Shown here piece by piece: positions 2,245 to 24,996 of a stretch of 28,506 nt of DNA. The DNA comes from a virus. Lineage: Duplodnaviria; Caudoviricetes. The stretch covers positions 1 through 28,506 of IMG/VR virus record IMGVR_UViG_3300029823_000010; one strand, given 5' to 3'. Positions within the stretch are counted from its first letter, which is position 1. Each line of letters starts with the position of its first letter. The notes under the pieces are model-generated. The model had not been told where the DNA came from, ran no database searches, and was given only the letters and a program-made list of their open reading frames with translations. Made by a program: the position numbers and the translations under genes.

Positions 2245-2318
2245 TGCGGAGTAGCCAAGCGGTAAGGCAACGGACTTTGATTCCGTTATCGGCAGCTCGA
2301 ATCTGTCCTGCGCAACCA
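2245..2318 (+). tRNA. tRNA-Gln(TTG), slightly degenerate
   Basis: Cloverleaf: D arm GCCAAGCGGTAAGGC, anticodon arm ACGGA-CTTTGAT-TCCGT, T arm GGCAG-CTCGAAT-CTGTC, encoded CCA; one G-G mismatch in the acceptor stem. Confidence 0.85.
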
Positions 2319-4837: not shown

Positions 4838-4912
4838 TTAGTCGTCGTTGTCCTCGTCGTCCATGTCGTCGCCGAAAATGACAAGCATATCGTCCATGCC
4901 ATCATCGCCCAT
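4838..4912 (-). CDS. 24-aa highly acidic peptide
   Basis: MGDDGMDDMLVIFGDDMDDEDNDD*; AGGAGG 9 nt before ATG; overlaps the recombinase stop; precedes the terminator. Confidence 0.55.
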   Translation of the reverse strand: MGDDGMDDMLVIFGDDMDDEDNDD

Positions 4913-5477
4913 CGTCTGCCGCCTCCTCTCCATGCACGAAGCTGTAGAAGGTGTTACGCTTGAGACCGGTTTCTTCCATTGCCTGCGCTCCGGTTATTTC
5001 CCTGCGCTTCCAGCGGGCATAAACGTCCTGCCAGTTTTCGGGCTTAGCTATGCGCTTGCGGCCCTTGTAAACGCCTTTTTGCTTCGCTTTCTCAATTCCC
5101 TCGGCCTGCCGCTCGTGAAGGTTGTCAAGCTCAAACTGATTCAAAACGCCCACCATTCCAAGCATCATTCGCCCTGCCGCTGTGTTCGTGTCGATGTTTT
5201 CTTTCAGCGACACGAGGCCGACACCCTTTCCTTTGAGCACGTCAACGACGTGCAGCAAGTCAAGCAAGGACCGAGAAAGCCGGGAAAAATCCTCGACATA
5301 AATTGTATCGCCCTCCCGGATATACTCCAGCATTGCCCGGAATTGTGGGCGGTCTGTGTTTTTGCCGCTGATTTTCTCGCGGAACCACTTGTCAATCTTG
5401 TACGGAGTGAGCGCGGCGACTTGCCTGTCCTCGTGCTGCTCAATTGTCGACACTCTCACATATGCTACTCTTGCCAT
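4902..5477 (-). CDS. Small serine recombinase (resolvase/invertase family)
   Basis: AYVRVST.EQ...RQ catalytic motif, SGKN.DRP, GDT..V..FSRLSRS, C-terminal HTH (GLKRNTFY); GAGGTG SD. Confidence 0.95.
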   Translation of the reverse strand: MARVAYVRVSTIEQHEDRQVAALTPYKIDKWFREKISGKNTDRPQFRAMLEYIREGDTIYVEDFSRLSRSLLDLLHVVDVLKGKGVGLVSLKENIDTNTAAGRMMLGMVGVLNQFELDNLHERQAEGIEKAKQKGVYKGRKRIAKPENWQDVYARWKRREITGAQAMEETGLKRNTFYSFVHGEEAADDGR

Positions 5478-5488
5478 ATAATCACCTC

Positions 5489-5530
5489 TTTAAAAATTGT
5501 GGAGGCGGGCCAGACGTGACCCGCTGGGCG
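5489..5530 (-). repeat. Intergenic hairpin repeat, copy 1
   Basis: CGCCCAGCGGGTCACGTCTGGCCCGCCTCCACAATTTTTAAA, near-identical to 6349-6390. Confidence 0.85.
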
Positions 5531-5531
5531 G

Positions 5532-5879
5532 CTAACCGACTATTTCGAAATGTATTCCCTCAGTTACAAGCGCCGTTCCATGACCACCTGGCAGGCAACC
5601 TTCCAGCACTGTCCGCTTGCCTATCCATTCTTCCGGGACGTTCCAGTCACCTTTTTTCCAACGGCCTTTGTAATCACTCGGAATTGCGCTCCACTGTTCC
5701 TTTGTGATTCTTGCTACCCCGCTGAATGTTGCCTGCATTACTGCCGCCTTGTCTACCGTAACGCCACGTTCCGCCCAACTGTCGGCCCACTCGTTAATAT
5801 GGGCAGCGGCTTTTTCTTTTCCAAACAGGCGCAACCTTTTCTGTGCGCAACGTACAGCCGCTTCTTCATATGCTTTCAT
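5532..5879 (-). CDS. Hypothetical protein
   Basis: Likely start MKAYEEAA at 5879 with AGAGGT SD; C-terminal ITKEQWSAIPSDYKG...EGIHFEIV. Confidence 0.75.
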   Translation of the reverse strand: MKAYEEAAVRCAQKRLRLFGKEKAAAHINEWADSWAERGVTVDKAAVMQATFSGVARITKEQWSAIPSDYKGRWKKGDWNVPEEWIGKRTVLEGCLPGGHGTALVTEGIHFEIVG

Positions 5880-6080
5880 AACAATGTACCTCTTTCGTTT
5901 CGTCGTCGGCTGTGGTACAATTACCATGCAGCCGGGTTTGTAGTTACTCTCGGTCTGTATTTTTGCCGCTGCACTTGTCAATGTACCATTTATCAATCTG
6001 ATGCGGTTTAAGGGCGGCAACCTGCCGCCCCTCGTTCTGCTCCTGAGTACTAACCCTTACGTAACCAACGCTTGCCACAA

Positions 6081-6338
6081 TTATGCCCCCTTCAAGAAAT
6101 CAGCAATTGGTATAGACGTTTCCGGCCCTGCCTTATATCCGTCTGGCGTTGTGGGATAAACTGCGACACATACCGAGCGTTTCAGCTCGTTGGCGTAAAT
6201 TGGCGCAGCCCAACCGGTGTACAGGTCGTGCAACTTTTCAATGACGGTCGAGGCCCGCTTATATGGCCAGCGCTCAAAGTCTACCATGCGCCCGCACTCG
6301 TCGCGGAGCTCGCTTTCATAGTACTGCTTCATCATCAA
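6081..6338 (-). CDS. Hypothetical protein
   Basis: ORF track; AGGGGG SD directly after repeat copy 2. Confidence 0.75.
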   Translation of the reverse strand: MMMKQYYESELRDECGRMVDFERWPYKRASTVIEKLHDLYTGWAAPIYANELKRSVCVAVYPTTPDGYKAGPETSIPIADFLKGA

Positions 6339-6348
6339 TCATCCCCCT

Positions 6349-6390
6349 TTTAAAAATTTTTGGAGGCGGGCCATCGTGACCCGCTGGGCG
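6349..6390 (-). repeat. Intergenic hairpin repeat, copy 2
   Basis: CGCCCAGCGGGTCACGATGGCCCGCCTCCAAAAATTTTTAAA. Confidence 0.85.
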
Positions 6391-6398
6391 ACTTCTTT

Positions 6399-6551
6399 TT
6401 ACTCCATCCCGTCTGGAATCTCAAAATCGACTTCCCATTCGTCCCCATAATTATCGTGGACTTTTTGACCGGACACCAATCTGTCGACTGTCACCGCCAT
6501 CATGTGGTGTGTGCCGTTTCTGTCATCGCGCCTAAGCCAGTACTTCCGCAT
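6399..6551 (-). CDS. Small hypothetical protein (50 aa)
   Basis: MRKYWLRRDDRNGTHHMMAVTVDRLVSGQKVHDNYGDEWEVDFEIPDGME*; GGGGTG SD; below the ORF-track cutoff. Confidence 0.65.
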   Translation of the reverse strand: MRKYWLRRDDRNGTHHMMAVTVDRLVSGQKVHDNYGDEWEVDFEIPDGME

Positions 6552-6803
6552 CGTTTCACCCCCGTTTGTTTGGTCTCAGGCTTGTGAGGCCGTTTGTTTG
6601 TTTTCGCTGATTCCTACCCTATTCGGATTGATTGTTGCTTGTCTCCGGGCGTCCTATTAGAGGGTGCCCCAAACGGACACTCAGCGCCGCCGTCGTCGGC
6701 CGCGGAAGTCGCCGCGCAGCCAGCGAAGAATGTGTATCTGCCCTGCTAACAGCAGAGCAACTATTGCCTCTGCCGCCCTTATCACCTCCCTTTGTGGCGC
6801 TTG

Positions 6804-6965
6804 TCAATAGTCGCTTGACACAACCACCCTATCTACATCTTCATCGACATAGACAGATGTTATATCGGCGTCCCCGTCATCGTATGGGGCGCGGAATATT
6901 ACCTCCATGTCGCCATACAATTCTTTGCGTTTTTGTAATTCCTTAATAACGTCGCTGATGGTCAT
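6804..6965 (-). CDS. Small acidic hypothetical protein
   Basis: MTISDVIKELQKRKELYGDMEV...; GGAGGTG SD before ATG 6965. Confidence 0.75.
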   Translation of the reverse strand: MTISDVIKELQKRKELYGDMEVIFRAPYDDGDADITSVYVDEDVDRVVVSSDY

Positions 6966-7036
6966 TCTATCACCTCCATGGCTGGACTTGTAACCAGCCT
7001 GTAGCATTACGCGCCGTTTCCGGCGTGGTACTCTGC

Positions 7037-7258
7037 TTATGCCCTAACTGCCCTGTATCCCCACACGTTACAGCCGTTGCGGTCGTCCCACATCATCTTA
7101 GCCGCCGCGCGTGCGTCCTTAAGATTGCGGGCGATTGTGCCGCAGTCCTCACTGTGCCCGTCTGCCGTCTCCGCTGTGATGGGTTGCCCTACGCCATTGT
7201 AATAGATTGTCATTTTCCCTGTGCTCGTGCTGATTGTAGCGATAGCCTTTTTCATCAT
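7037..7258 (-). CDS. Small hypothetical protein
   Basis: MMKKAIATISTSTGKMTIYY...; GGAGGT SD. Confidence 0.7.
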   Translation of the reverse strand: MMKKAIATISTSTGKMTIYYNGVGQPITAETADGHSEDCGTIARNLKDARAAAKMMWDDRNGCNVWGYRAVRA

Positions 7259-8315: not shown

Positions 8316-9989
8316 ATGTTACCGGAAGATTTTATTCAAGCGAGAGGCAAAATTCTAATAGACTTGAAGCACTACCCAAATATGAAGCTTGACATGAAAA
8401 TTGAAAGTTTTCGTGCGCTTAGAAGCATCTATAAAAAAGACAAAGACACAAGCCACGAGCTATGGGCTAACTATGAATTGCGTAAGTCACTAAACCAAAA
8501 GCTGTCTGAAAGCCTGCCCGCATCTGAAACCAAAAGGTTGTTGAAATACTATTGGAACACATTTTTGGTAGGCTCCAGATATTCTTTTCACGATTATATG
8601 CTGTATTTGGAACATAATCGTGACGCAGATAAAAAGTTCTATGAGAACCGGCTCGCACAGTTAAGACCGATTGTACAGGACTTGCAAGACCTTTACGATG
8701 GTAAAATAATGCGGCTTGGCATATCACTTCCCCCGGGGGTTGGGAAAACCGCATTAATTATATTTTTCTTGTCGTGGGTAATGGGGAAAGACCCGTTAAA
8801 GCCTAATTTGTACTCTGGATATGCTGATAAACTTTGCCGCGGCACGTTCGACGGCATTATGAGCATACTGAAAGACCCGGAATATTGCTACAATGAGATT
8901 TTCCCCGATTCTCCGCTTGCCACTACAAACGCAAAAGATGAAAGCATCGACCTTGTAAAGCCGCAGAGGTTTAAGACCTTTACGGCTCGTTCGCTGGATT
9001 CAAGTTTGACCGGTGCTACACGCTGCGAGAACATTCTTGTGCTCGACGACGCTGTTTCTGGCATTGAGGAAGCCATGAATCTCGAACGGTTGGATTCTTT
9101 ATGGATGAAAGTTACAAATGACCTTTTCAGCCGAGCCAAAGAGGGCTGCCGCGTTCTTCTGGTGGGAACTCGTTGGAGCTGCCATGATGTTTTGGGGCAT
9201 ATGGAATCAAGATATGGCGGAGACAAACAGTCAAAATTTATTCGTATTCCCGCACTGAATTCAAATGGCGGTTCAAACTTTGAATACAAACATGGAGTTG
9301 GCTTTTCACGCGAGTATTTTGAAAATATGCGTGGCAGCATGGATGATGTATCTTGGAGAGCCATCTACCAGCAGGAGCCGATTGAAAGAGAAGGCCTACT
9401 TTACCCGAAAGATAGCCTGCATTACTATTTTGACCTCCCAAATAATCGGCCGGATGCGATTATTGCGGCCTGCGACAGTAAAAACCAAGGCAAAGATTTT
9501 GTTTGCGCTCTTTGCGGCTATGTTTACGGGGAATCGGTGTATATCCCTGACTTGGTATTCAACAACGGTCTGCCGGAAGTCACTAAGCCACTTGTCGCAA
9601 ACCTGTGCATAAACAATAAAGTGAGCCGAATGGATATAGAATCCAATAATGGCGGCGAATATTACGCGCAGGACGTAGACGACCAGATTAAAAAGCGCGG
9701 CGGTTACACTTCCGTGAGGACATTTTTTACTTCAACCAACAAAATCACTAAAATCATAACTGAAAGTGACTTTATCAAAAAGCATTTTGTGTTTTTGGAC
9801 GAATCGAAGTTACAAGATGGTAAGCATGAAGAATACAAAGCGTTCATGCGTAACCTTTTGGAATTTACAATCACTGGCAAAGTAAAGCATGATGACGCTC
9901 CAGACGCACTTTCCATGCTTTCACAGCTCGTAAAGGATTTGTCCGGAATGGACGTAAGAATAATCGACCGTCGGAGCTTGCCGTTTTAA
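8316..9989 (+). CDS. terL: Terminase large subunit
   Basis: Walker A ISLPPGVGKT, Walker B LVLDD, motif GTRW, YQQEP, nuclease HDDAPDAL. Confidence 0.95.
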   Translation: MLPEDFIQARGKILIDLKHYPNMKLDMKIESFRALRSIYKKDKDTSHELWANYELRKSLNQKLSESLPASETKRLLKYYWNTFLVGSRYSFHDYMLYLEHNRDADKKFYENRLAQLRPIVQDLQDLYDGKIMRLGISLPPGVGKTALIIFFLSWVMGKDPLKPNLYSGYADKLCRGTFDGIMSILKDPEYCYNEIFPDSPLATTNAKDESIDLVKPQRFKTFTARSLDSSLTGATRCENILVLDDAVSGIEEAMNLERLDSLWMKVTNDLFSRAKEGCRVLLVGTRWSCHDVLGHMESRYGGDKQSKFIRIPALNSNGGSNFEYKHGVGFSREYFENMRGSMDDVSWRAIYQQEPIEREGLLYPKDSLHYYFDLPNNRPDAIIAACDSKNQGKDFVCALCGYVYGESVYIPDLVFNNGLPEVTKPLVANLCINNKVSRMDIESNNGGEYYAQDVDDQIKKRGGYTSVRTFFTSTNKITKIITESDFIKKHFVFLDESKLQDGKHEEYKAFMRNLLEFTITGKVKHDDAPDALSMLSQLVKDLSGMDVRIIDRRSLPF

Positions 9990-10019
9990 TAATGCTAAAG
10001 CCCATACTATGCCTGCAAA

Positions 10020-10069
10020 TTGTACAGTTTCGCTCATGTGTTGCATTTACATTCAATTTGTGGTATAAT
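10020..10069 (+). promoter_or_regulatory. Conserved sigmaA-type promoter, copy 2
   Basis: TTGTAC-N15-TTGCATTTACATTCAATTTGTGGTATAAT. Confidence 0.85.
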
Positions 10070-10089
10070 ATAGAGGCAAAAGAAATTTG

Positions 10090-10154
10090 AGAGCGCCTTT
10101 GAGTGCCAAAGCAGAAACGATTATTCAATCTTTTGTATCGGGAGAAGGCGCGAC
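10090..10154 (+). promoter_or_regulatory. Tandem heptamer site 3 in the portal leader
   Basis: AGAGCGCC-ttt-GAGTGCC; GCGCCTTT can pair with GAAGGCGC (10144-10151) between the SD and ATG 10155. Confidence 0.75.
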
Positions 10155-11717
10155 ATGATATTTGAAACTAACAATAATGAAATTCTCAATGCCCTCGGTA
10201 AAGACCATAAATTTCTCGGGCGCAGAGCGATTTATACATCTCGTGCAGAAGATGAAATTAACGAAAACACGATTCCAGCTGTTGTGAATGGCGCTATGCA
10301 GCGGCATCTTATCAACAGGCAGGAAATCATATATTTGTTTCGGTATTTTTGCGGTGACCAGCCAATCCTTTCCCGCAAAAAGGCCGTTCGTCCAGAAATA
10401 AACAACAGGCTTGTCATAAACAACGCCTATTCTATTGTCCGCAATTCTACAGGCTATTTCCTTGGCGAGCCTATTCAATATACGGCAAAAGAGAGCAGCG
10501 ATAACAACGATGTTATGCAGCTCAACACCTTTATGGACAGCGAAAACAAAGCGCAGGAAGATATCAAGCTTGCGCAGGACGCTTCCATTTGCGGCACGGC
10601 ATATCGCCTTGTGTCAGTTGGAGACGGCACAGAAGAAGATGAAGCCCCGTTTGAAATCCCAACTTTGGAACCATGGAATACATTCGTAATTTACTCTTCA
10701 AAAGCAGGCCATAAGCCACTTTTGGGAGTTACATATAGCAAGTTGCTTGACGATAATGGCAACGTAAGCGGCACACTTTATACAGTTTATGACAAAGAAT
10801 GCCAATATCAGTATTCCGTTGAGGGCGGCTTCACAACACAAATCAAAGCCGAGAACATAATTGGTACTCCAAAAGCACATTTCCTCGGGGCAGTGCCAAT
10901 TATTGAATACCCAAACAACGAATTCAGAATTGGTGACTTTGAAGTTGTAATGACAATTCTTGATGCCATATCGCAACTTCATTCAGACCGTATGAACAGT
11001 ATACAGCAAATTGTAAATTCGGTGCTTGTGTTTATTGGCTGCCATATGAAGAGCAAAGAAGAAAATCAAGCCAAAGGCGAAGGAAACGCAAGCGACTACG
11101 ATATGCTCCAGCAATACGGAGCAATGGAATTGCCTGCTACAGGGGGCACGGCAAAACCGGAAGTTAAATATGTTAGCGCTTCTGTAGACCAGAATGAGGC
11201 CGAAACGCTTGCGCAGACACTAATTGACTACGCCTACGCAATTTCTGGTATTCCTGACCGCAAGCAAAAGAGTAGTGGAGCGGGTGGAGAAACAGGGGAC
11301 GCGGTTTATCTCCGTGACGGATTCCAGTCTTTGGAGCTTGTTGCTCGCGTGAAAGAGCGCAGCTTTAAGCAGTCTGAGCGGCAGTCGCTCCGCATGATTT
11401 GCAAGATTCTGAAAATTTTCAATGGCATTGACTTGAAGCCAATGCGAGTTGATGTGAAGTTTATCAGAAACCGCACAAACAACCTCGTTAATAAGTCTCA
11501 GGCCGCAGTCAATTTGAGGCAAACGGAAATGTTTGCTCCGGAAGATATTATAGGCCTTATCGGTGTTACAGATGATGCAAAGAGCATGGCAAAAAGGGGA
11601 GAAGAGTGGCTAAAGCAAAACTCACAGCAGCACTCTGAGACGAAGCCAATAGCTCAAAAAAATGTGGAGGCAGACACAGGCAATGGTGGGAACGGATACA
11701 GTGGAACAATGGCGTGA
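10155..11717 (+). CDS. Portal protein, SPP1 gp6-like
   Basis: 520 aa after terL; NNRLVINNAYSIV....GYFLGEPIQY, HFLGAVPIIEYPNN...GDFE.V..ILDA. Confidence 0.92.
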   Translation: MIFETNNNEILNALGKDHKFLGRRAIYTSRAEDEINENTIPAVVNGAMQRHLINRQEIIYLFRYFCGDQPILSRKKAVRPEINNRLVINNAYSIVRNSTGYFLGEPIQYTAKESSDNNDVMQLNTFMDSENKAQEDIKLAQDASICGTAYRLVSVGDGTEEDEAPFEIPTLEPWNTFVIYSSKAGHKPLLGVTYSKLLDDNGNVSGTLYTVYDKECQYQYSVEGGFTTQIKAENIIGTPKAHFLGAVPIIEYPNNEFRIGDFEVVMTILDAISQLHSDRMNSIQQIVNSVLVFIGCHMKSKEENQAKGEGNASDYDMLQQYGAMELPATGGTAKPEVKYVSASVDQNEAETLAQTLIDYAYAISGIPDRKQKSSGAGGETGDAVYLRDGFQSLELVARVKERSFKQSERQSLRMICKILKIFNGIDLKPMRVDVKFIRNRTNNLVNKSQAAVNLRQTEMFAPEDIIGLIGVTDDAKSMAKRGEEWLKQNSQQHSETKPIAQKNVEADTGNGGNGYSGTMA

Positions 11718-11929
11718 CGCAGAGGAAGGAAGCAATCCAGATGACGCAACAGATGGAGAAGAATAAAGGACCGCTTGTCGAAGTCCGTTGCAACAACATC
11801 ATGTACAATCCGGCAACGGACAGATATTACACGTGCAACCGGCTTTTGGGGAGACTCCCGAAAGATTCGGAATATCAGATAAAATGCCCCAAATGCGGAC
11901 ATATGAACGTAAAGGGGAAAACGGAATGA
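11714..11929 (+). CDS. Mu Com-like zinc-ribbon regulator
   Basis: EVRC-x14-CNRLLG...YQIKCPKCGHMN resembles Mu Com (IRCxxCNKLL...EIRCPRC); start GTG 11714 (coupled to the portal stop) or ATG 11741. Confidence 0.8.
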   Translation: MTQRKEAIQMTQQMEKNKGPLVEVRCNNIMYNPATDRYYTCNRLLGRLPKDSEYQIKCPKCGHMNVKGKTE

Positions 11930-12075
11930 AAATCGGAGACAAGGTTATCGACAAAAATGGATATACTGGCGTTATTTCACACATCTGGGAAACCGGTCAA
12001 ATTGCAGTTGAGCAAGAGCCAAATGTCACTTACACGTATGACCACGCCAATATGTTGACCGTCATTAAGAGCTAA
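11926..12075 (+). CDS. Small SH3/KOW-like beta-barrel protein
   Basis: MKIGDKVIDKNGYTGVISHI...; ATGA overlap with the Com-like stop. Confidence 0.65.
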   Translation: MKIGDKVIDKNGYTGVISHIWETGQIAVEQEPNVTYTYDHANMLTVIKS

Positions 12076-12097
12076 TAATGGAAAGTGAGGAAGCAGA

Positions 12098-12211
12098 ATG
12101 AATCAGAATGAAAGATGGTACCCAAAGCCAAAAGATTCCGACGATTTATCTTTTGGATACAAGGTTGATTGTTGTAGCCATTGTTACGTGGATAAACAAG
12201 TAAATACATAG
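12098..12211 (+). CDS. Small hypothetical peptide (37 aa)
   Basis: MNQNERWYPKPKDSDDLSFGYKVDCCSHCYVDKQVNT*; GAGG SD; its TAG overlaps heptamer site 4. Confidence 0.4.
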   Translation: MNQNERWYPKPKDSDDLSFGYKVDCCSHCYVDKQVNT

Positions 12212-12265
12212 AGCGCCTTTTGAGCGCCGGTTTTTCGAGAAATCGAATTGCTGGCGCTCTTTTTC
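12210..12265 (+). terminator. Intrinsic terminator carrying tandem heptamer site 4
   Basis: AGAGCGCC-tttt-GAGCGCC; GAGCGCCGGT...GCTGGCGCTC stem then TTTTTCTTCTT. Confidence 0.85.
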
Positions 12266-12310
12266 TTCTTTATTCAATTTGAAATTAATACCGGTGAAAG
12301 GTTGACAAAT

Positions 12311-12499
12311 ATGGCAAAAAAAGCTCTAAATTTTAAATCTTCGGCTGCAAAGAACCGTTGGATTAAGGCAGTCCATAGCATTCCTTCCAAAACACACCCG
12401 GGTAAATCCGTTGCGCAGGCTTCCCCGGGCAATACTCCGCTGAAAGTTAAAGGAAAATCCGTAAAAGTAAAGCATTCTGTGAGACGCAAGAAAAAGTAA
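12311..12499 (+). CDS. Small very basic protein (62 aa)
   Basis: MAKKALNFKSS...KVKGKSVKVKHSVRRKKK; AAAGGT SD; no acidic residues. Confidence 0.65.
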   Translation: MAKKALNFKSSAAKNRWIKAVHSIPSKTHPGKSVAQASPGNTPLKVKGKSVKVKHSVRRKKK

Positions 12500-12529
12500 T
12501 CCATTTGCCGGGGGAATCCGGCTTTATAT

Positions 12530-12609
12530 GGGGCTGGTAATGGAATCGACGAGGTGAAAAGCCAATGTGCAAGCCTCGCATCGGAGTCCGATTCTCCGCA
12601 GCTCCACCA
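12530..12609 (+). ncRNA. Minimal tmRNA-like RNA (tRNA-like domain only)
   Basis: 5' GGGGCTG-GTAATGGAATCGAC and 3' CGGAG-TCCGATT-CTCCG-CAGCTCC-ACCA; G3-U70 pair; short CGAGGT/GCCTCG helix in place of the mRNA domain. Confidence 0.75.
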
Positions 12610-12755
12610 ATATGCGGCAGACGTGTCGCCGTGGCATTCGGCTGCCCGCTTGAACCCCAACAGACCTCCTTTTAGACCTTCTTTTGAGGCGCGTTACAAC
12701 AAAGCCGGATTGATGGCAAACCACGTTTTCGGTGAGGCCGACAAACCGAATCTAT

Positions 12756-12832
12756 TGTGGGTTAGAGAAGTGGCCCATCTCACATGGCTCATATCCATGA
12801 GAACGTTGGTTCGAATCCAACACCCGCAACCA
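12756..12832 (+). tRNA. tRNA with CAT anticodon (Met or Ile2)
   Basis: Acceptor TGTGGGT/ACCCGCA, D arm GAGA-AGTGGCCCA-TCTC, anticodon arm CATGG-CTCATAT-CCATG, T arm GTTGG-TTCGAAT-CCAAC, CCA. Confidence 0.9.
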
Positions 12833-12920
12833 CAGGCAAGTTTAAAGGTTTTCTGCCGCTAAAACGACCGGCATAGCGCCCGGTAAAACCTTTCTTTTAT
12901 TAAAAACAAGGGGTGAGGAA

Positions 12921-13685
12921 TTGCTAAATGACTTTGTGATGGTAAAACACAAGTTACCGCGTGACTTGCCATACATTCACCTTTACCCGTTGGCTGATGT
13001 ACATATAGGCTCTGCCGAATTTAATGAAAAGCTGTTCAAATTGTGGATTCAAACCGTTCAGAATGACCCATTTGGCTATGCAGTTATTGCAGGCGATATG
13101 ATGAACAACGGCATTAAGACCAGTAAGACCAACGTCTATGAAGAAAAGATGCGCCCTGCACAGCAAAAGGAATATCTTCACGAATCCTTAAAGCCAATCA
13201 AAGAAAAAATCCTCGGGGCTTGCGGAGGAAATCACGAATATAGAAATATCCGCGAGGTAGACGATGACCCACTTTACGATGTATTTTGCAGACTCGGAAT
13301 TGAGGATAGATACCGTCAAAATGCTTGCTTTATGAAAGTAAGTTTGGGCGCTGCAAAGAAAGACAGACAGGTTTCTTATTGCATTGTCCTAATTCACGGG
13401 AAGTCACGGAACAAGCTCCAAAAGTGGGAATACACGGTTGACGGGGCAGACATTGTTATTTCAGGTCACACGCACATACCGGAAGAATCTCCTCCCTGCA
13501 AAATTCGTGTTGATATGCACAACGAAACGGTTTCAACCGCCGAATTTACAAATGTAGTTTGTAGCAGCTTTCAAGACTATGGCGGATACGCATTACGTGG
13601 GCTTATGCCTCCGAATGCAAGCAAGAGATTCCAAATTCTAACGTTGGATGGTACTGCCAAGCACGTTGGATATGAGAATAAATAA
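12921..13685 (+). CDS. Calcineurin-like metallophosphoesterase
   Basis: DxHxG (ADVHIG), GD (AGDMMNN), GNHE, HG and GHTH motifs. Confidence 0.9.
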   Translation: MLNDFVMVKHKLPRDLPYIHLYPLADVHIGSAEFNEKLFKLWIQTVQNDPFGYAVIAGDMMNNGIKTSKTNVYEEKMRPAQQKEYLHESLKPIKEKILGACGGNHEYRNIREVDDDPLYDVFCRLGIEDRYRQNACFMKVSLGAAKKDRQVSYCIVLIHGKSRNKLQKWEYTVDGADIVISGHTHIPEESPPCKIRVDMHNETVSTAEFTNVVCSSFQDYGGYALRGLMPPNASKRFQILTLDGTAKHVGYENK

Positions 13686-13741
13686 TTTGAGAAGTTTGGC
13701 GGATAAATACCGCCCCTTCTCCCTTAAATGGGGGAAGAAAA

Positions 13742-14374
13742 GTGAAAGAAATCTGGAAAGACGTAGCTGGATTTGAAGGGCTATATAAAATCAGTAACTT
13801 TGGAAATGCAAAAAGTTTGGACATGATGGTTTTATGCTCCGGAGGGAATCGGAGAAAAGTAAACGGAAAAATTCTTAATAAAAGAATCAATCACAAAACC
13901 GGTTATGTCCAGTATGTGCTATGCCACGACGGAAAAAAATACTGGAAATATGCTCACAGGTTAGTAGCCGAAGCGTTTATACCAAACCCAAATCATTACG
14001 CAGAAATAAATCACAAAGACGAAACCAAATCCAACAATTATTTCGAAAACCTTGAATGGTGTTCGCATTCTTATAATAACAGCTATGGCACAAAGATCGA
14101 ACGCTGTAGACAGCATACAGATGCCAAAGCAAGAGCACAAAAAATTGATTATAAAGCACTGGTTCAAAAAATTGACTACAACGCAATTGCTGAATATAGC
14201 AGAAAGCCGGTTGTTCAATTAAGCCTTGATGGTAAAAAAATAAGCGTATTTAAATCGCAGAGAGAAGCATCAAGAAAAACCGGTACAAATGTTTGCAGAA
14301 TTTCTCAATGTTGTTTGGGAAACGCAACACAATCCAATGGCTTTAGATGGGAATTTTTAAATCAACCAGCCTAA
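13742..14374 (+). CDS. NUMOD4-HNH-NUMOD1 homing endonuclease
   Basis: EIWKDVAGFEGLYKISNFG, HRLVAEAFIPNP, INHKDE.KSNN..ENLEWC, F.SQREASR.TG...ISQCC.G....NGFRW. Confidence 0.92.
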   Translation: MKEIWKDVAGFEGLYKISNFGNAKSLDMMVLCSGGNRRKVNGKILNKRINHKTGYVQYVLCHDGKKYWKYAHRLVAEAFIPNPNHYAEINHKDETKSNNYFENLEWCSHSYNNSYGTKIERCRQHTDAKARAQKIDYKALVQKIDYNAIAEYSRKPVVQLSLDGKKISVFKSQREASRKTGTNVCRISQCCLGNATQSNGFRWEFLNQPA

Positions 14375-14487
14375 TACCCGGAAGGGTTTAGATATTAGAA
14401 ATTTTTATTACACGGCGGGCCAATGCCAATCGGGAACTTACGAGGTCCTTACGCAGAGGAACGGCGCGGAATACGGAGGAATTCAGA

Positions 14488-15207
14488 ATGAAAATGAAAA
14501 GGTTTAACACAATTTCTAAATACGCAAGGCGCTTTGATGGTGAAGGCGGCGGCGGTTCTGCCACAGGGGCAGCTTCTGCGGCGTCTGCCACAACAGGCTC
14601 AGAGGCATCTACCGGCGTTGGAAGCGGCACTCAAACCGCAGCAGTACCCACAACACAGACAGCTGCGGAGGAAACAAAGCCTTTTAAAACTTTTGCTTCG
14701 CAGGCCGACTTTGACCGCGAAATTCAGCAAGCCTTGAAATCCCGCGAGGAATCCATCAAGGCAAAACTCACACCAGAAATTAAAGCTCAACTCGACAAGG
14801 AATCCAAAATGACAGCAGAGCAAAAGGTGCAAACAAAACTTGACGAGTTGAATAATCAAAAGGCGGAACTTGCAAAAGAAAAATGCCGCATCAAGGCTGA
14901 GTCATTGCTTGTCAGCAAGGGCATTACCGATGAAGTTTCACGCTCCACAATGCTTGACAGTGTAGTAACAGGAGACGAAACAGAAACATTGAAGCGTGCA
15001 CAGGCTCTTGTAGACGCTATTGACAAAGCCACTAATGACAAAATTAAGGAAGAAATGAAAAGAGTCAAAAAGCCTGCTTCTGACGTTGGACAAAACGACG
15101 AGAACAAAACCATTGCCGTGAAGTATGCTCAAGACTATGCTAAACGCCGCGCAACTGCATCAAAAGCCTCTAATGACATTCTGAACCAGTTTATCCACAA
15201 GGAATAA
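14488..15207 (+). CDS. Capsid scaffolding protein (DUF4355-like)
   Basis: FDGEGGGG N-terminus, low-complexity linker, KTF.SQADFDR, KMTAEQK coiled coil; lies upstream of the decoration and capsid genes. Confidence 0.8.
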   Translation: MKMKRFNTISKYARRFDGEGGGGSATGAASAASATTGSEASTGVGSGTQTAAVPTTQTAAEETKPFKTFASQADFDREIQQALKSREESIKAKLTPEIKAQLDKESKMTAEQKVQTKLDELNNQKAELAKEKCRIKAESLLVSKGITDEVSRSTMLDSVVTGDETETLKRAQALVDAIDKATNDKIKEEMKRVKKPASDVGQNDENKTIAVKYAQDYAKRRATASKASNDILNQFIHKE

Positions 15208-15221
15208 TGGAGGGTTAAATA

Positions 15222-15554
15222 ATGAAATTTACTAAGACTGGCACATATGGCGATACCACAGAAATTCTTGCCAACGACCATTATGTAGCCATTACAAAGG
15301 CGCTCAACTTTGCAGGCAACAGCACAGGTATTTTTAAGGCCGGTACACCGATTGGTGCAGATAGCAAAGCAGCTACAACAACATCTAATGTTTCGAATGC
15401 AGTCGGTATTCTGCTTTCAGACGCCACAGCAGACAATCCAAACGGCACCATTATTGTCCATGGGTTCATTGACACAGCAAAAGCACAGGCAAATTCTGGT
15501 GTTACGATTGACGCAGCCACAAAATCCGCACTTCCAATGGTGCTCTTTTGCTGA
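15222..15554 (+). CDS. Head decoration protein
   Basis: KAGTPIG, AVGILLSD, GTIIVHGFID; between scaffold and major capsid. Confidence 0.75.
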   Translation: MKFTKTGTYGDTTEILANDHYVAITKALNFAGNSTGIFKAGTPIGADSKAATTTSNVSNAVGILLSDATADNPNGTIIVHGFIDTAKAQANSGVTIDAATKSALPMVLFC

Positions 15555-15573
15555 TTAACAGGAGGAAATAATT

Positions 15574-16650
15574 ATGAATTTAACTGACCTTTTTTCGCCA
15601 CAAGCCGTTTCCGTGGCGTTCACAGAAAACCCGAGCAATAAACAGCCTTTTTTTGGCGCAGGACTTTTCCCTGAGCGTAAGAAAGCAGGGCTTGACCTTT
15701 CATGGATTAAAGGCACACATGGACTCCCAATTTCCTTGAAGCCCTCCAACTTTGATGCAAAAGCAACATTCCGCGATAGAGTCGGTGTTTCAAAGATTGA
15801 ATCCGAAATGCCATTCTTCCGTGAAGGCTACCACATCAATGAAAATGACCGGCAGGAAATCCTTAAGGCACAGGACTCTGGCAGCCCGTTTGTGCAGACC
15901 GTCCTCGACAACATCTACAACGATGTCAATGGCCTTGTCACAGGTGCTTATGTTGTACCTGAGCGCATGAGAATGCAACTTCTTGCTCCAGATTCCGGCA
16001 ATGTCGGTATTCATATCTCGGCTAACGGTGTGGATTACTCATACAACTATGACCCTGACGGCAGCTGGAAAGCATCTAACTATGTGCCTATTGCGGATGC
16101 AACAAAAAAGTGGAATGTTTCAGATACAGCGACACCAATTACAGACATCGAAGCTGTTCAGGATACTATTGAAGATGCTACAGGTTCACGCCCCAACACT
16201 GCAATTATGAGCCGTGCAACATTCAATATGCTTATGGCCTCTAAGCAGGTTCACGATGCTGTACTTGCGCGCAACCCAACAGCAAACGTCTTTATTACTC
16301 CGAGTATTGTTAAGCAGGCTTTTGCACAGATTCTCGGTGTTGACATTGTTGTTTACACTAAAAAGTTCCGTGACGAAAGTAAGGCCATTCATGCGTACTA
16401 TCCAGACAATTATGTCACGCTGTTTGATAGCGAAGTAACCCTTGGCAGTACATATTACGGCACAACGCCAGAAGAAGCAGACCTTATGGGCAAATCCACG
16501 CCGCAGGCAAGGACTTCTGTAGTCGGCACCGGCGTTGCAATAACGCAGATTTTAGAGCCGCACCCAGTGAATCTCGAAACGATTGTATCTGAAATTGTGC
16601 TTCCGTCTTACGAAGGCATGAATACGGTCGGCGTGTTGAAGGTGGCTTAA
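15574..16650 (+). CDS. Major capsid protein (lambda gpE-like family)
   Basis: 358 aa; LFPERK..GL.L.WIKG, SNFDAKA..R.R, MPFFRE, G.TYYGTTPEEADL. Confidence 0.9.
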   Translation: MNLTDLFSPQAVSVAFTENPSNKQPFFGAGLFPERKKAGLDLSWIKGTHGLPISLKPSNFDAKATFRDRVGVSKIESEMPFFREGYHINENDRQEILKAQDSGSPFVQTVLDNIYNDVNGLVTGAYVVPERMRMQLLAPDSGNVGIHISANGVDYSYNYDPDGSWKASNYVPIADATKKWNVSDTATPITDIEAVQDTIEDATGSRPNTAIMSRATFNMLMASKQVHDAVLARNPTANVFITPSIVKQAFAQILGVDIVVYTKKFRDESKAIHAYYPDNYVTLFDSEVTLGSTYYGTTPEEADLMGKSTPQARTSVVGTGVAITQILEPHPVNLETIVSEIVLPSYEGMNTVGVLKVA

Positions 16651-24817: not shown

Positions 24818-24996
24818 ATAGGAGCTGGGAGGAACACCTCCCAAAGGTACAAAAAGGGCGCTATCCTTGCGCGGGAGAAAAGCGGTTGCCGCCGCAACTG
24901 CCGCGCCCTTTATTTTTTTATTCACGGCGGCATACCGGCATAGAAACTTGTTTGGGCAAGGACAACGTGCCAGAAAGATACGGCGGGGTCAAAAAT

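Follow-up and report, generated by a model that had tools for sequence, protein, structure and literature searches.

An 80-nt gene in a tailed phage resembles the tmRNA of phage DS6A that consists only of a tRNA-like domain, and occupies a slot that some sister phages fill with tRNA genes

The closest described counterpart of the gene analysed here belongs to phage DS6A, which PMC4131195, in its available text, lists as 'Mycobacterium phage DS6A (TLD only)', that is, as a tmRNA consisting of the tRNA-like domain (TLD) alone. According to the same text, tmRNA is strongly inhibited by a molecule of similar kind whether or not it can be charged, and titration of SmpB may be the cause (Mao 2009). 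The available text of PMC11915505 instead attributes inhibition of the endogenous tmRNA in E. coli to the DS6A form, and the two sources disagree on which RNA was assayed, that of DS6A itself or a similar one. PMC11915505 also counts 9 'standard, no CDS' entries among 97,179 curated tmRNA sequences and, in the part available, describes TLD-only genes of about 65 bp in plastids. As for the TLD itself, excerpts of the following articles give A15, U17, A334, C18 and G19 as the SmpB contacts (PMC8363625), G3-U70 plus the discriminator A as the determinants for alanyl-tRNA synthetase (AlaRS), and contacts between the D and T loops as a need of SmpB binding (both PMC3968760, PMC3989591). In vitro, the isolated TLD is reported in such excerpts to be alanylated, bound by SmpB and able to accept a peptide (PMC3968760, PMC2481249, PMC3929946), and together with SmpB to yield template-free polyalanine (PMC2481249, PMC3929946). 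The literature searched, mostly lacking subscription journals and supplements, held no survey of phage TLD-only RNAs. The original prediction, made from the bare sequence, had given protist mitochondria as the precedent for tag-less tmRNAs; its TLD with alanine identity stands, but it had overlooked that the DS6A form and two plastid forms were already published, along with the inhibition of tmRNA (PMC4131195, PMC11915505, as far as their available text goes).

The window, that is, the whole stretch of 28,506 nt that was analysed, is a linear tailed-phage record, about 50% complete. On its plus strand it carries a gene of 80 nt that we classify, from all the sequence-level features tested, as a predicted DS6A-type TLD-only tmRNA (12530-12609). 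Its parts are as follows.

12530..12609 (+): TLD-only (tag-less) tmRNA gene, 80 nt; RF00023 match, bridged unchanged in 4/4 DNA runs
12530..12536 (+): 5′ strand of the acceptor stem, G3 at 12532; 7 bp with 12599-12605
12537..12549 (+): stemless D loop ending TCGAC, with G13 G14 A15 A16 U17 C18 G19 A20
12550-12555/12573-12578 (+): helix 2a, 6 bp, closed by a 17-nt loop; from covariation
12557-12563 (+): A-rich+RCC motif inside the 17-nt loop; a sequence pattern
12579..12581 (+): connector CAT, its A at 12580 being the A334 equivalent; numbered against L152
12582..12598 (+): T arm, 5-bp stem and loop TCCGATT with C at position 55; RF00023 alignment and fold
12599..12605 (+): 3′ strand of the acceptor stem, U70 at 12603; from sequence
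12606 and 12607-12609 (+): discriminator A and encoded CCA; from sequence

The D loop and the connector were numbered after a 363-nt tmRNA (L152). Infernal matched the tmRNA model RF00023 to both ends of the gene (12530-12609, plus strand; model positions 1-374) with 38.9 bits and an E value of 2.1e-12, below the Rfam gathering score of 47; 312 model positions collapse to 17 nt in this match. The gene has neither a tag reading frame nor pseudoknots, their place being taken by the 17-nt loop, and no tag-like frame was found within it or downstream of it. ARAGORN made no call at 12530-12609 and reported in the window just tRNA-Gln (2245) and tRNA-Met (12756). A pattern requiring both tmRNA ends at a distance of 22-52 nt, designed with the window in view, matched once in the window and in 0/100 shuffles. 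Folded alone, the RNA had an energy of z -1.27, which is not significant; the structure is therefore based on comparison, and the energy is no basis for it. In this lone fold, pair probabilities were 0.91-1.0 for the acceptor stem, 0.79-0.88 for helix 2a and merely 0.12-0.14 for the T stem. An inner 2-bp hairpin in the 17-nt loop was considered and dropped as unsupported (36.6% of cells paired in a model-fitted alignment whose register is poor there). All of the SmpB-contact bases, namely A15, U17, C18, G19 and the A334 equivalent, are present, and the equivalents of A16, C333 and U335 depart from the tmRNA consensus. The anatomy that the original prediction had drawn (7-bp acceptor stem, G3-U70, discriminator A, CCA, stemless D loop, 6-bp helix and 17-nt loop) was thus borne out position by position, as was its reading as a stand-alone TLD with alanine identity, which agrees with the RF00023 ends and the conserved G3-U70.

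DS6A carries its gene, unannotated in GenBank, at 28478-28560 of JN698994.1 (tmID 11587), with a length of 83 nt against 80 nt in the window and 60% identity between the two. Both have the same order of ends, G3-U70, the discriminator A, the stemless D loop, helix 2a and the A-rich+RCC motif, and in both a C directly precedes the connector A, the DS6A connector being G-CAC. They differ in that CCA is encoded in the window whereas DS6A has CTA, and in that only the window shows the T loop TCCGATT, a tRNA-Met neighbour in the head module and hypervariable alleles among sister phages. Moreover, the closest cultured capsid relatives of the window phage infect Bacillota (49% identity), while DS6A is a Mycobacterium phage. 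The standard tmRNA (RF00023) has in common with the window both TLD halves, alanine identity, the SmpB-contact bases and helix 2a, but it measures 340-369 nt and contains a tag frame, a resume codon and pseudoknots, all missing from the 80 nt; A16, the connector CAT and C55 of the window occur in none of 88 full-length tmRNAs. Tag-less TLDs are also found in organelles (mitochondrial RF02544; Mallomonadaceae plastids, about 65 bp), where, according to the available text of PMC11915505, the CDS-less form is the organelle's own tmRNA and in mitochondria mostly permuted, unlike the phage-borne form, whose host presumably has a full tmRNA. In engineered TLD fragments (the PDB 2CZJ construct; Shimizu and Ueda 2006) the ends are likewise joined by a short loop, but the window holds a natural gene with a conserved motif in its 17-nt loop. 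Finally, tRNA-Ala (RF00005) has the same G3-U70, discriminator A, T arm and CCA; unlike it, the window gene lacks a D stem and an anticodon arm, and Rfam ranks tmRNA above tRNA, so a canonical tRNA is not the better fit, a doubt that had been attached to the original prediction.

Several other assignments were tried and rejected. A standard tmRNA is contradicted by the missing tag-coding domain and pseudoknots and by the score of 38.9 bits, below 47; a permuted two-piece tmRNA by the standard order of the ends, the lack of any permuted-family match and a spacer without a tag frame; and a canonical tRNA by the lack of a D stem and of a 7-nt anticodon loop, ARAGORN being silent. A tag supplied in trans by the downstream spacer would have to use the frame from 12713, which reads MANHVFG... 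through the tRNA-Met and has no alanine-rich end. An attP fragment of ssrA, already doubted in the original prediction since both ends are there, does not agree with two ends that co-vary and no integrase beside the gene. Recent deletion from one particular tmRNA found no support, the window copy being no closer to the two ends of any of 88 full-length tmRNAs (best 0.74) than to other mini forms (best 0.76).

Public runs containing the stretch or part of it numbered 20, from nine studies. In 4/4 DNA runs, each of a different study and chosen so as to exclude the possible source of the record, a single contig bridges 12530-12609 with no differing letter and no internal joint, the few changes seen in these runs being located in the flanks; a misassembled full tmRNA is therefore excluded at this locus. 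In four RNA-labelled runs, two of which are probably DNA, contigs span the gene partly or wholly and continue through the flanks. Large internal deletions do occur in some tmRNA genes of older metagenome-assembled genomes (MAGs), as the available text of PMC11915505 records, and a full tmRNA collapsed in assembly might be invoked here too. Besides the four unchanged bridges, however, there are 92 distinct short forms, including two loci (L033, L068) that look like prophages of isolate genomes, judging from the form of their contig identifiers; the cultured phage DS6A is a carrier as well. We regard an assembly artefact as scarcely credible.

How widespread are such genes? In viral DNA, for which the original prediction had suggested a search for tmRNA-like ends less than 100 nt apart, the two-ended pattern returned 119 loci, from which about 140 are estimated in the viral collection, and these represent 92 distinct mini-form sequences of 63-90 nt. 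ARAGORN left 113 of the 119 copies uncalled and overlapped six, with four over-long tmRNA calls and two tRNA-Glu; in the two over-long calls that were inspected, no upstream 5′ end was seen. A tRNA lies within 300 nt of 19/119 viral copies, some loci having short flanks. For scale, the full-length version of the pattern is estimated to match about 680 viral stretches, many of them probably host genes at prophage edges. A looser second pattern, in which U70 and the whole 5′ end were free and the 5′ register was chosen by best pairing, gave 120 loci with 106 distinct sequences (about 310 stretches estimated, false ones included). Of these 106, 75 passed a TLD filter and 31 were excluded, several of the latter being TLD-like with G3-U70 but rejected by the helix test. 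Even though the loose pattern left U70 free, 74 of the 75 TLD-like sequences had G3-U70.

Across the 92 distinct mini forms, the connector A equivalent to A334 was present in every one, unforced by the pattern, with varying neighbouring letters; the connector GGAC occurred in 67/92 mini forms against 86/88 full-length tmRNAs. The T loop TCCGATT, which the original prediction had listed as a caveat, recurs in 14/92 mini forms and in the sister locus L139, and in 0/88 full-length tmRNAs, so this objection carries little weight; GGAATCGAC was found in 3/92 mini forms and 0/88 full-length tmRNAs. By a pattern chosen post hoc, the A-rich+RCC loop motif is present in 43/46 mini forms of 79-84 nt and in 0/46 of other lengths, and on this sequence evidence the window copy and DS6A belong to a 79-84-nt, A-rich+RCC subtype.

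Other searches delimit the family. Among 185,579 species genomes the pattern matched 16 times, two of the matches being permuted tmRNA genes of Microvirga (L121, L124), which were left out. Blastn of the 80 nt against 50,697 phage records gave a single chance match of 21 nt, a narrow window-like pattern had no match in metagenome contigs, and a search with the portal protein found no relative. Probed via one mini form, phage Bongo has a full tmRNA, and three Xanthomonas/Stenotrophomonas phages match one mini form by its 3′ half only. Tag-less forms that are longer (111-123 nt) and have additional stems were also noted (L271-L276, L281, L282), several with an A-rich+GCC motif; L270 and L277 were left out of this set for want of T-arm pairing. 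In three Saccharibacteria MAGs (L123, L126, L128; G001, G003, G004) a 65-nt TLD-only gene adjoins a gene for a TrmB-family regulator; these MAGs also encode a full tmRNA and smpB elsewhere, and a prophage location is not obvious. In a fourth (G002), a MAG of merely 0.5 Mb, a single tmRNA match exceeds the cut-off; it is a TLD-only form of 73 nt (L125:3001-3073) with smpB about 570 nt away, and represents either a chromosomal tmRNA without a tag or a deletion introduced in assembly.

Acceptor pairs 1-4 and the last T pair are imposed by the two-ended pattern itself; they were therefore excluded as evidence of covariation, leaving the remaining pairs to count. In 53 representatives less than 80% identical, acceptor pair 5, T1, T2, T3 and helix-2a pair 1 were paired in 53/53, against shuffle means of 20-31 and maxima of 29-40 (for acceptor 5, T1, T2 and helix-2a 1 alone, 20-25 and 29-34), in shuffles that ignore relatedness. 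Each of these five unforced pairs was realised by four or five pair types among the 53 forms. RNAalifold, run on 41 selected members aligned with MAFFT, recovered helix 2a and the T stem, with both-side changes in 9/11 pairs. None of the 18 pairs, the seven of the acceptor stem included, is broken in the window copy, in the sister loci L139 and L140 or in DS6A; relative to the window copy, both sides of a pair have changed 5 times in L139, 6 in L140 and 8 in DS6A. Compensatory changes in the stems, which had been proposed as a check of the original prediction, are thus found, and this sequence record argues that the structure of the mini forms is under selection.

The surroundings of the gene on the plus strand contain the following features.

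8316-9989 (+): terminase large subunit (PHROGs)
10155-11717 (+): portal (PHROGs)
12311..12499 (+): 62-aa lysine-rich ORF immediately upstream of the gene, without a family match
12507..12522 (+): terminator-like hairpin followed by a T-rich tail, ending 7 nt upstream of the gene
12610..12755 (+): conserved spacer from mini-tmRNA to tRNA-Met, without a tag frame
12756..12832 (+): tRNA-Met (CAT) (ARAGORN, Rfam)
12921..13685 (+): calcineurin-like phosphoesterase (PF00149, phrog_7339), the bait for sister phages
14488-15207 (+): scaffold (PHROGs)
15574-16650 (+): major capsid (PHROGs)

The mini-tmRNA lies inside this head module (8316..16650, +), in the order terminase, portal, small ORFs, mini-tmRNA, 146-nt spacer, tRNA-Met, phosphoesterase, HNH gene, scaffold and capsid. 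Profile scans with PHROGs and Pfam took 42 and 15 hand-picked ORFs, respectively, out of 170 in the window; no integrase adjoins the gene among the ORFs scanned with PHROGs. Being on the same strand, tRNA-Met and the mini-tmRNA are likely co-transcribed. No sigma-70-like promoter was found between 11900 and 13100. Terminator-like sites numbered 2 against 1.2 expected, and sisters have a longer hairpin at the position of that at 12507-12522. The contig, of which about half is at hand, contains no smpB, and an SmpB partner would therefore be the host's. The closest cultured capsid relatives are phages of Brevibacillus, Psychrobacillus and Clostridium (41-49% identity), and the runs holding the stretch are mostly fermentation and bioreactor metagenomes; these relatives and sources lead us to take an anaerobic member of the Bacillota as the likely host.

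The spacer could be a phage RNA motif in its own right. It shares 121-122 of 134 aligned letters with L139 and L140 (L139:3699-3832; L140:784-917); this conservation of about 90% is above that of the mini-tmRNA itself, and a few of the changes look compensatory. Rfam has no match in 12610-12755, single folds disagree, and matches in the viral collection amount to 4. Elsewhere in the window, a 71-aa Com-like zinc-ribbon protein (11714-11929, +; PF10122, 23.3 bits), a 'translational regulator' in PHROGs, overlaps the end of the portal gene. A Type-P5 twister ribozyme (6982-7037, minus strand; 46.0 bits, above the Rfam cut-off of 37.6) sits in a region at about 5000-7000 where the skew is reversed and GC is higher, and where a DNA invertase gene (4902-5477) is also located. 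An int-alpA RNA match at 24854-24927 (+) scores 32.2 bits, below the cut-off of 35.8, and a weak abiF match (2201-2235, +) comes right before tRNA-Gln(TTG) at 2245-2318 (+).

Sister phages were collected with the phosphoesterase, which gave 13 loci, and the upstream region was inspected in 12 of them, eight close (80-89% protein identity) and four distant (40-42%). A mini-tmRNA occupies the corresponding position in L139 and L140, L300 being identical to L139 over the gene. In other close sisters the slot is occupied by tRNA-Trp (L137, L138), by a tRNA with anticodon GAA (L142, L143; Phe by ARAGORN in L143, tRNA by Rfam in L142) or by another tRNA (L144); with an ordinary tRNA in these five loci, the mini-tmRNA must be dispensable. 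In L141, the expected position of the mini-tmRNA, before the spacer, is taken up by unrelated DNA (1-198). None of the four distant loci has a mini-tmRNA or tRNA in the slot, and none of the 12 inspected has a full tmRNA there. Given this and the compensatory pairs in the sisters, the gene is not the one-off deletion that had been considered as an objection to the original prediction.

Between the window and L139, 59/79 letters are shared over the gene, 121/134 over the spacer and 68/77 over tRNA-Met. L139 and L140 share just 50/80 letters of the gene within flanks that are nearly identical, with 55/59 shared upstream and 133/134, 77/77 and 88/88 downstream (1 difference over 299 letters). The L140 D loop is without GG and its usual T loop is lost: in L140:704-783, a D loop ...ACAGTTTCGGC and a T loop GGCGGCA replace the usual motifs with all 18 pairs kept. 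Rfam at E 0.01 misses the mini-tmRNAs of both L139 and L140. Judged from three alleles, this pattern suggests that entire alleles are swapped in a slot that otherwise holds tRNAs, with the shape under selection. What appears to be new in these sequences is the presence of hypervariable alleles in near-identical flanks and of a slot interchangeable with tRNA.

What might the RNA do? The original prediction had offered an SmpB sponge, tag-less rescue and a nuclease decoy as candidates. The reading we favour, which could well be right and could equally well be wrong, is that the phage TLD RNA is cut from a transcript, alanylated, and competes with host tmRNA for SmpB. The mini-tmRNA and tRNA-Met would be cut from the same late transcript, and the former, once alanylated, would be bound by host SmpB and EF-Tu; in competition with host tmRNA it would lower the tagging and decay of proteins whose ribosomes have stalled in the infected cell, and its charged form could also enter empty A sites and take over the nascent chain with no tag added. 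The anatomy, the presence in independent assemblies, the family and the selection on structure are observed; expression, processing, charging and competition are what we infer for this copy. Given the strict conservation of G3-U70 and CCA, the competing molecule is probably alanylated; the inhibition described by the cited authors is independent of charging, and a pure sponge would therefore leave the kept G3-U70 unexplained. Departures at A16, in the connector CAT and at C55 might make SmpB binding or the D/T-loop contact weaker, and the terminator-like hairpin 7 nt upstream and the lack of a sigma-70-like promoter in 11900-13100 speak against expression. The G3-U70 found in 74/75 sequences, stricter than a pure sponge requires, would also suit an active role, in which the charged RNA and SmpB add one or more alanines without a message on non-stop ribosomes, and the chain is freed or marked on the phage's terms, beyond blocking the host. 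Organelle tag-less forms do persist as the cell's own tmRNA (PMC11915505, available text). With no stop codon, however, chain release would need another factor or drop-off, and the only in vivo report, in the available text of PMC4131195, is of inhibition; we consider such tag-less rescue or alanine tailing possible but rather unlikely.

The exchange of alleles bears on a different proposal, that an RNA without an anticodon loop is a decoy or stand-in that absorbs or evades nucleases of defences cutting or sensing tRNA or tmRNA, and is swapped as quickly as the defence changes. The slot's alternation with tRNA-Trp, tRNA-Phe and another tRNA, the 50/80 letters shared by the L139 and L140 alleles and the tRNA near 19/119 viral copies would fit it, and phage tRNAs evading anticodon nucleases are a published idea (PMC10264068), as are SmpB-like folds predicted in defence proteins (PMC10542128), to judge from the excerpts available. 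On the other hand, 100/119 viral copies have no tRNA within 300 nt (some flanks are short), no defence system was linked to the gene in this analysis, and a decoy does not alone account for the kept SmpB-contact bases and alanine identity, which makes this proposal distinctly unlikely to us. A decaying remnant, whether left by a deletion inside a tmRNA or by an attachment site, would have no present role. The sub-threshold RF00023 score, the three departures from consensus and the dispensability among sisters could be read in this way, and the loop motif resembles the 5′ strand in 33/88 full-length tmRNAs, but in only 4/58 outside the enterobacterial type; this resemblance makes an origin by deletion plausible. 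Yet decay is hard to reconcile with 18/18 intact pairs and 5, 6 and 8 both-side changes in L139, L140 and DS6A, with 0/12 sister loci holding a full tmRNA, with a head-module location lacking an integrase alongside, or with a 3′ end whose connector and T loop set it apart from every one of the 88 full-length tmRNAs, a difference impossible for an attP core. The covariation seen in the alignments thus largely refutes this reading, and we hold it to be improbable.

A bolder view is that TLD-only RNAs form a large hidden class of phage counter-defence, in which charged, SmpB-borne molecules would replace the SsrA tag by untemplated alanine tails, with whole alleles exchanged in an arms race with host enzymes directed at the tRNA shape; as a whole, we think this unlikely. 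The kind of system is not new, having been published from one phage, DS6A, but phage TLD-only RNAs are far commoner than curated lists show, and most are unannotated. To this the window copy adds that the gene appears to behave as a fast-exchanged cassette in a tRNA slot. Its natural alleles are ready probes of the bases needed by SmpB and by alanyl-tRNA synthetase, and if such RNAs blunt or redirect trans-translation, host ribosome rescue would come under phage control through an RNA of 80 bases.
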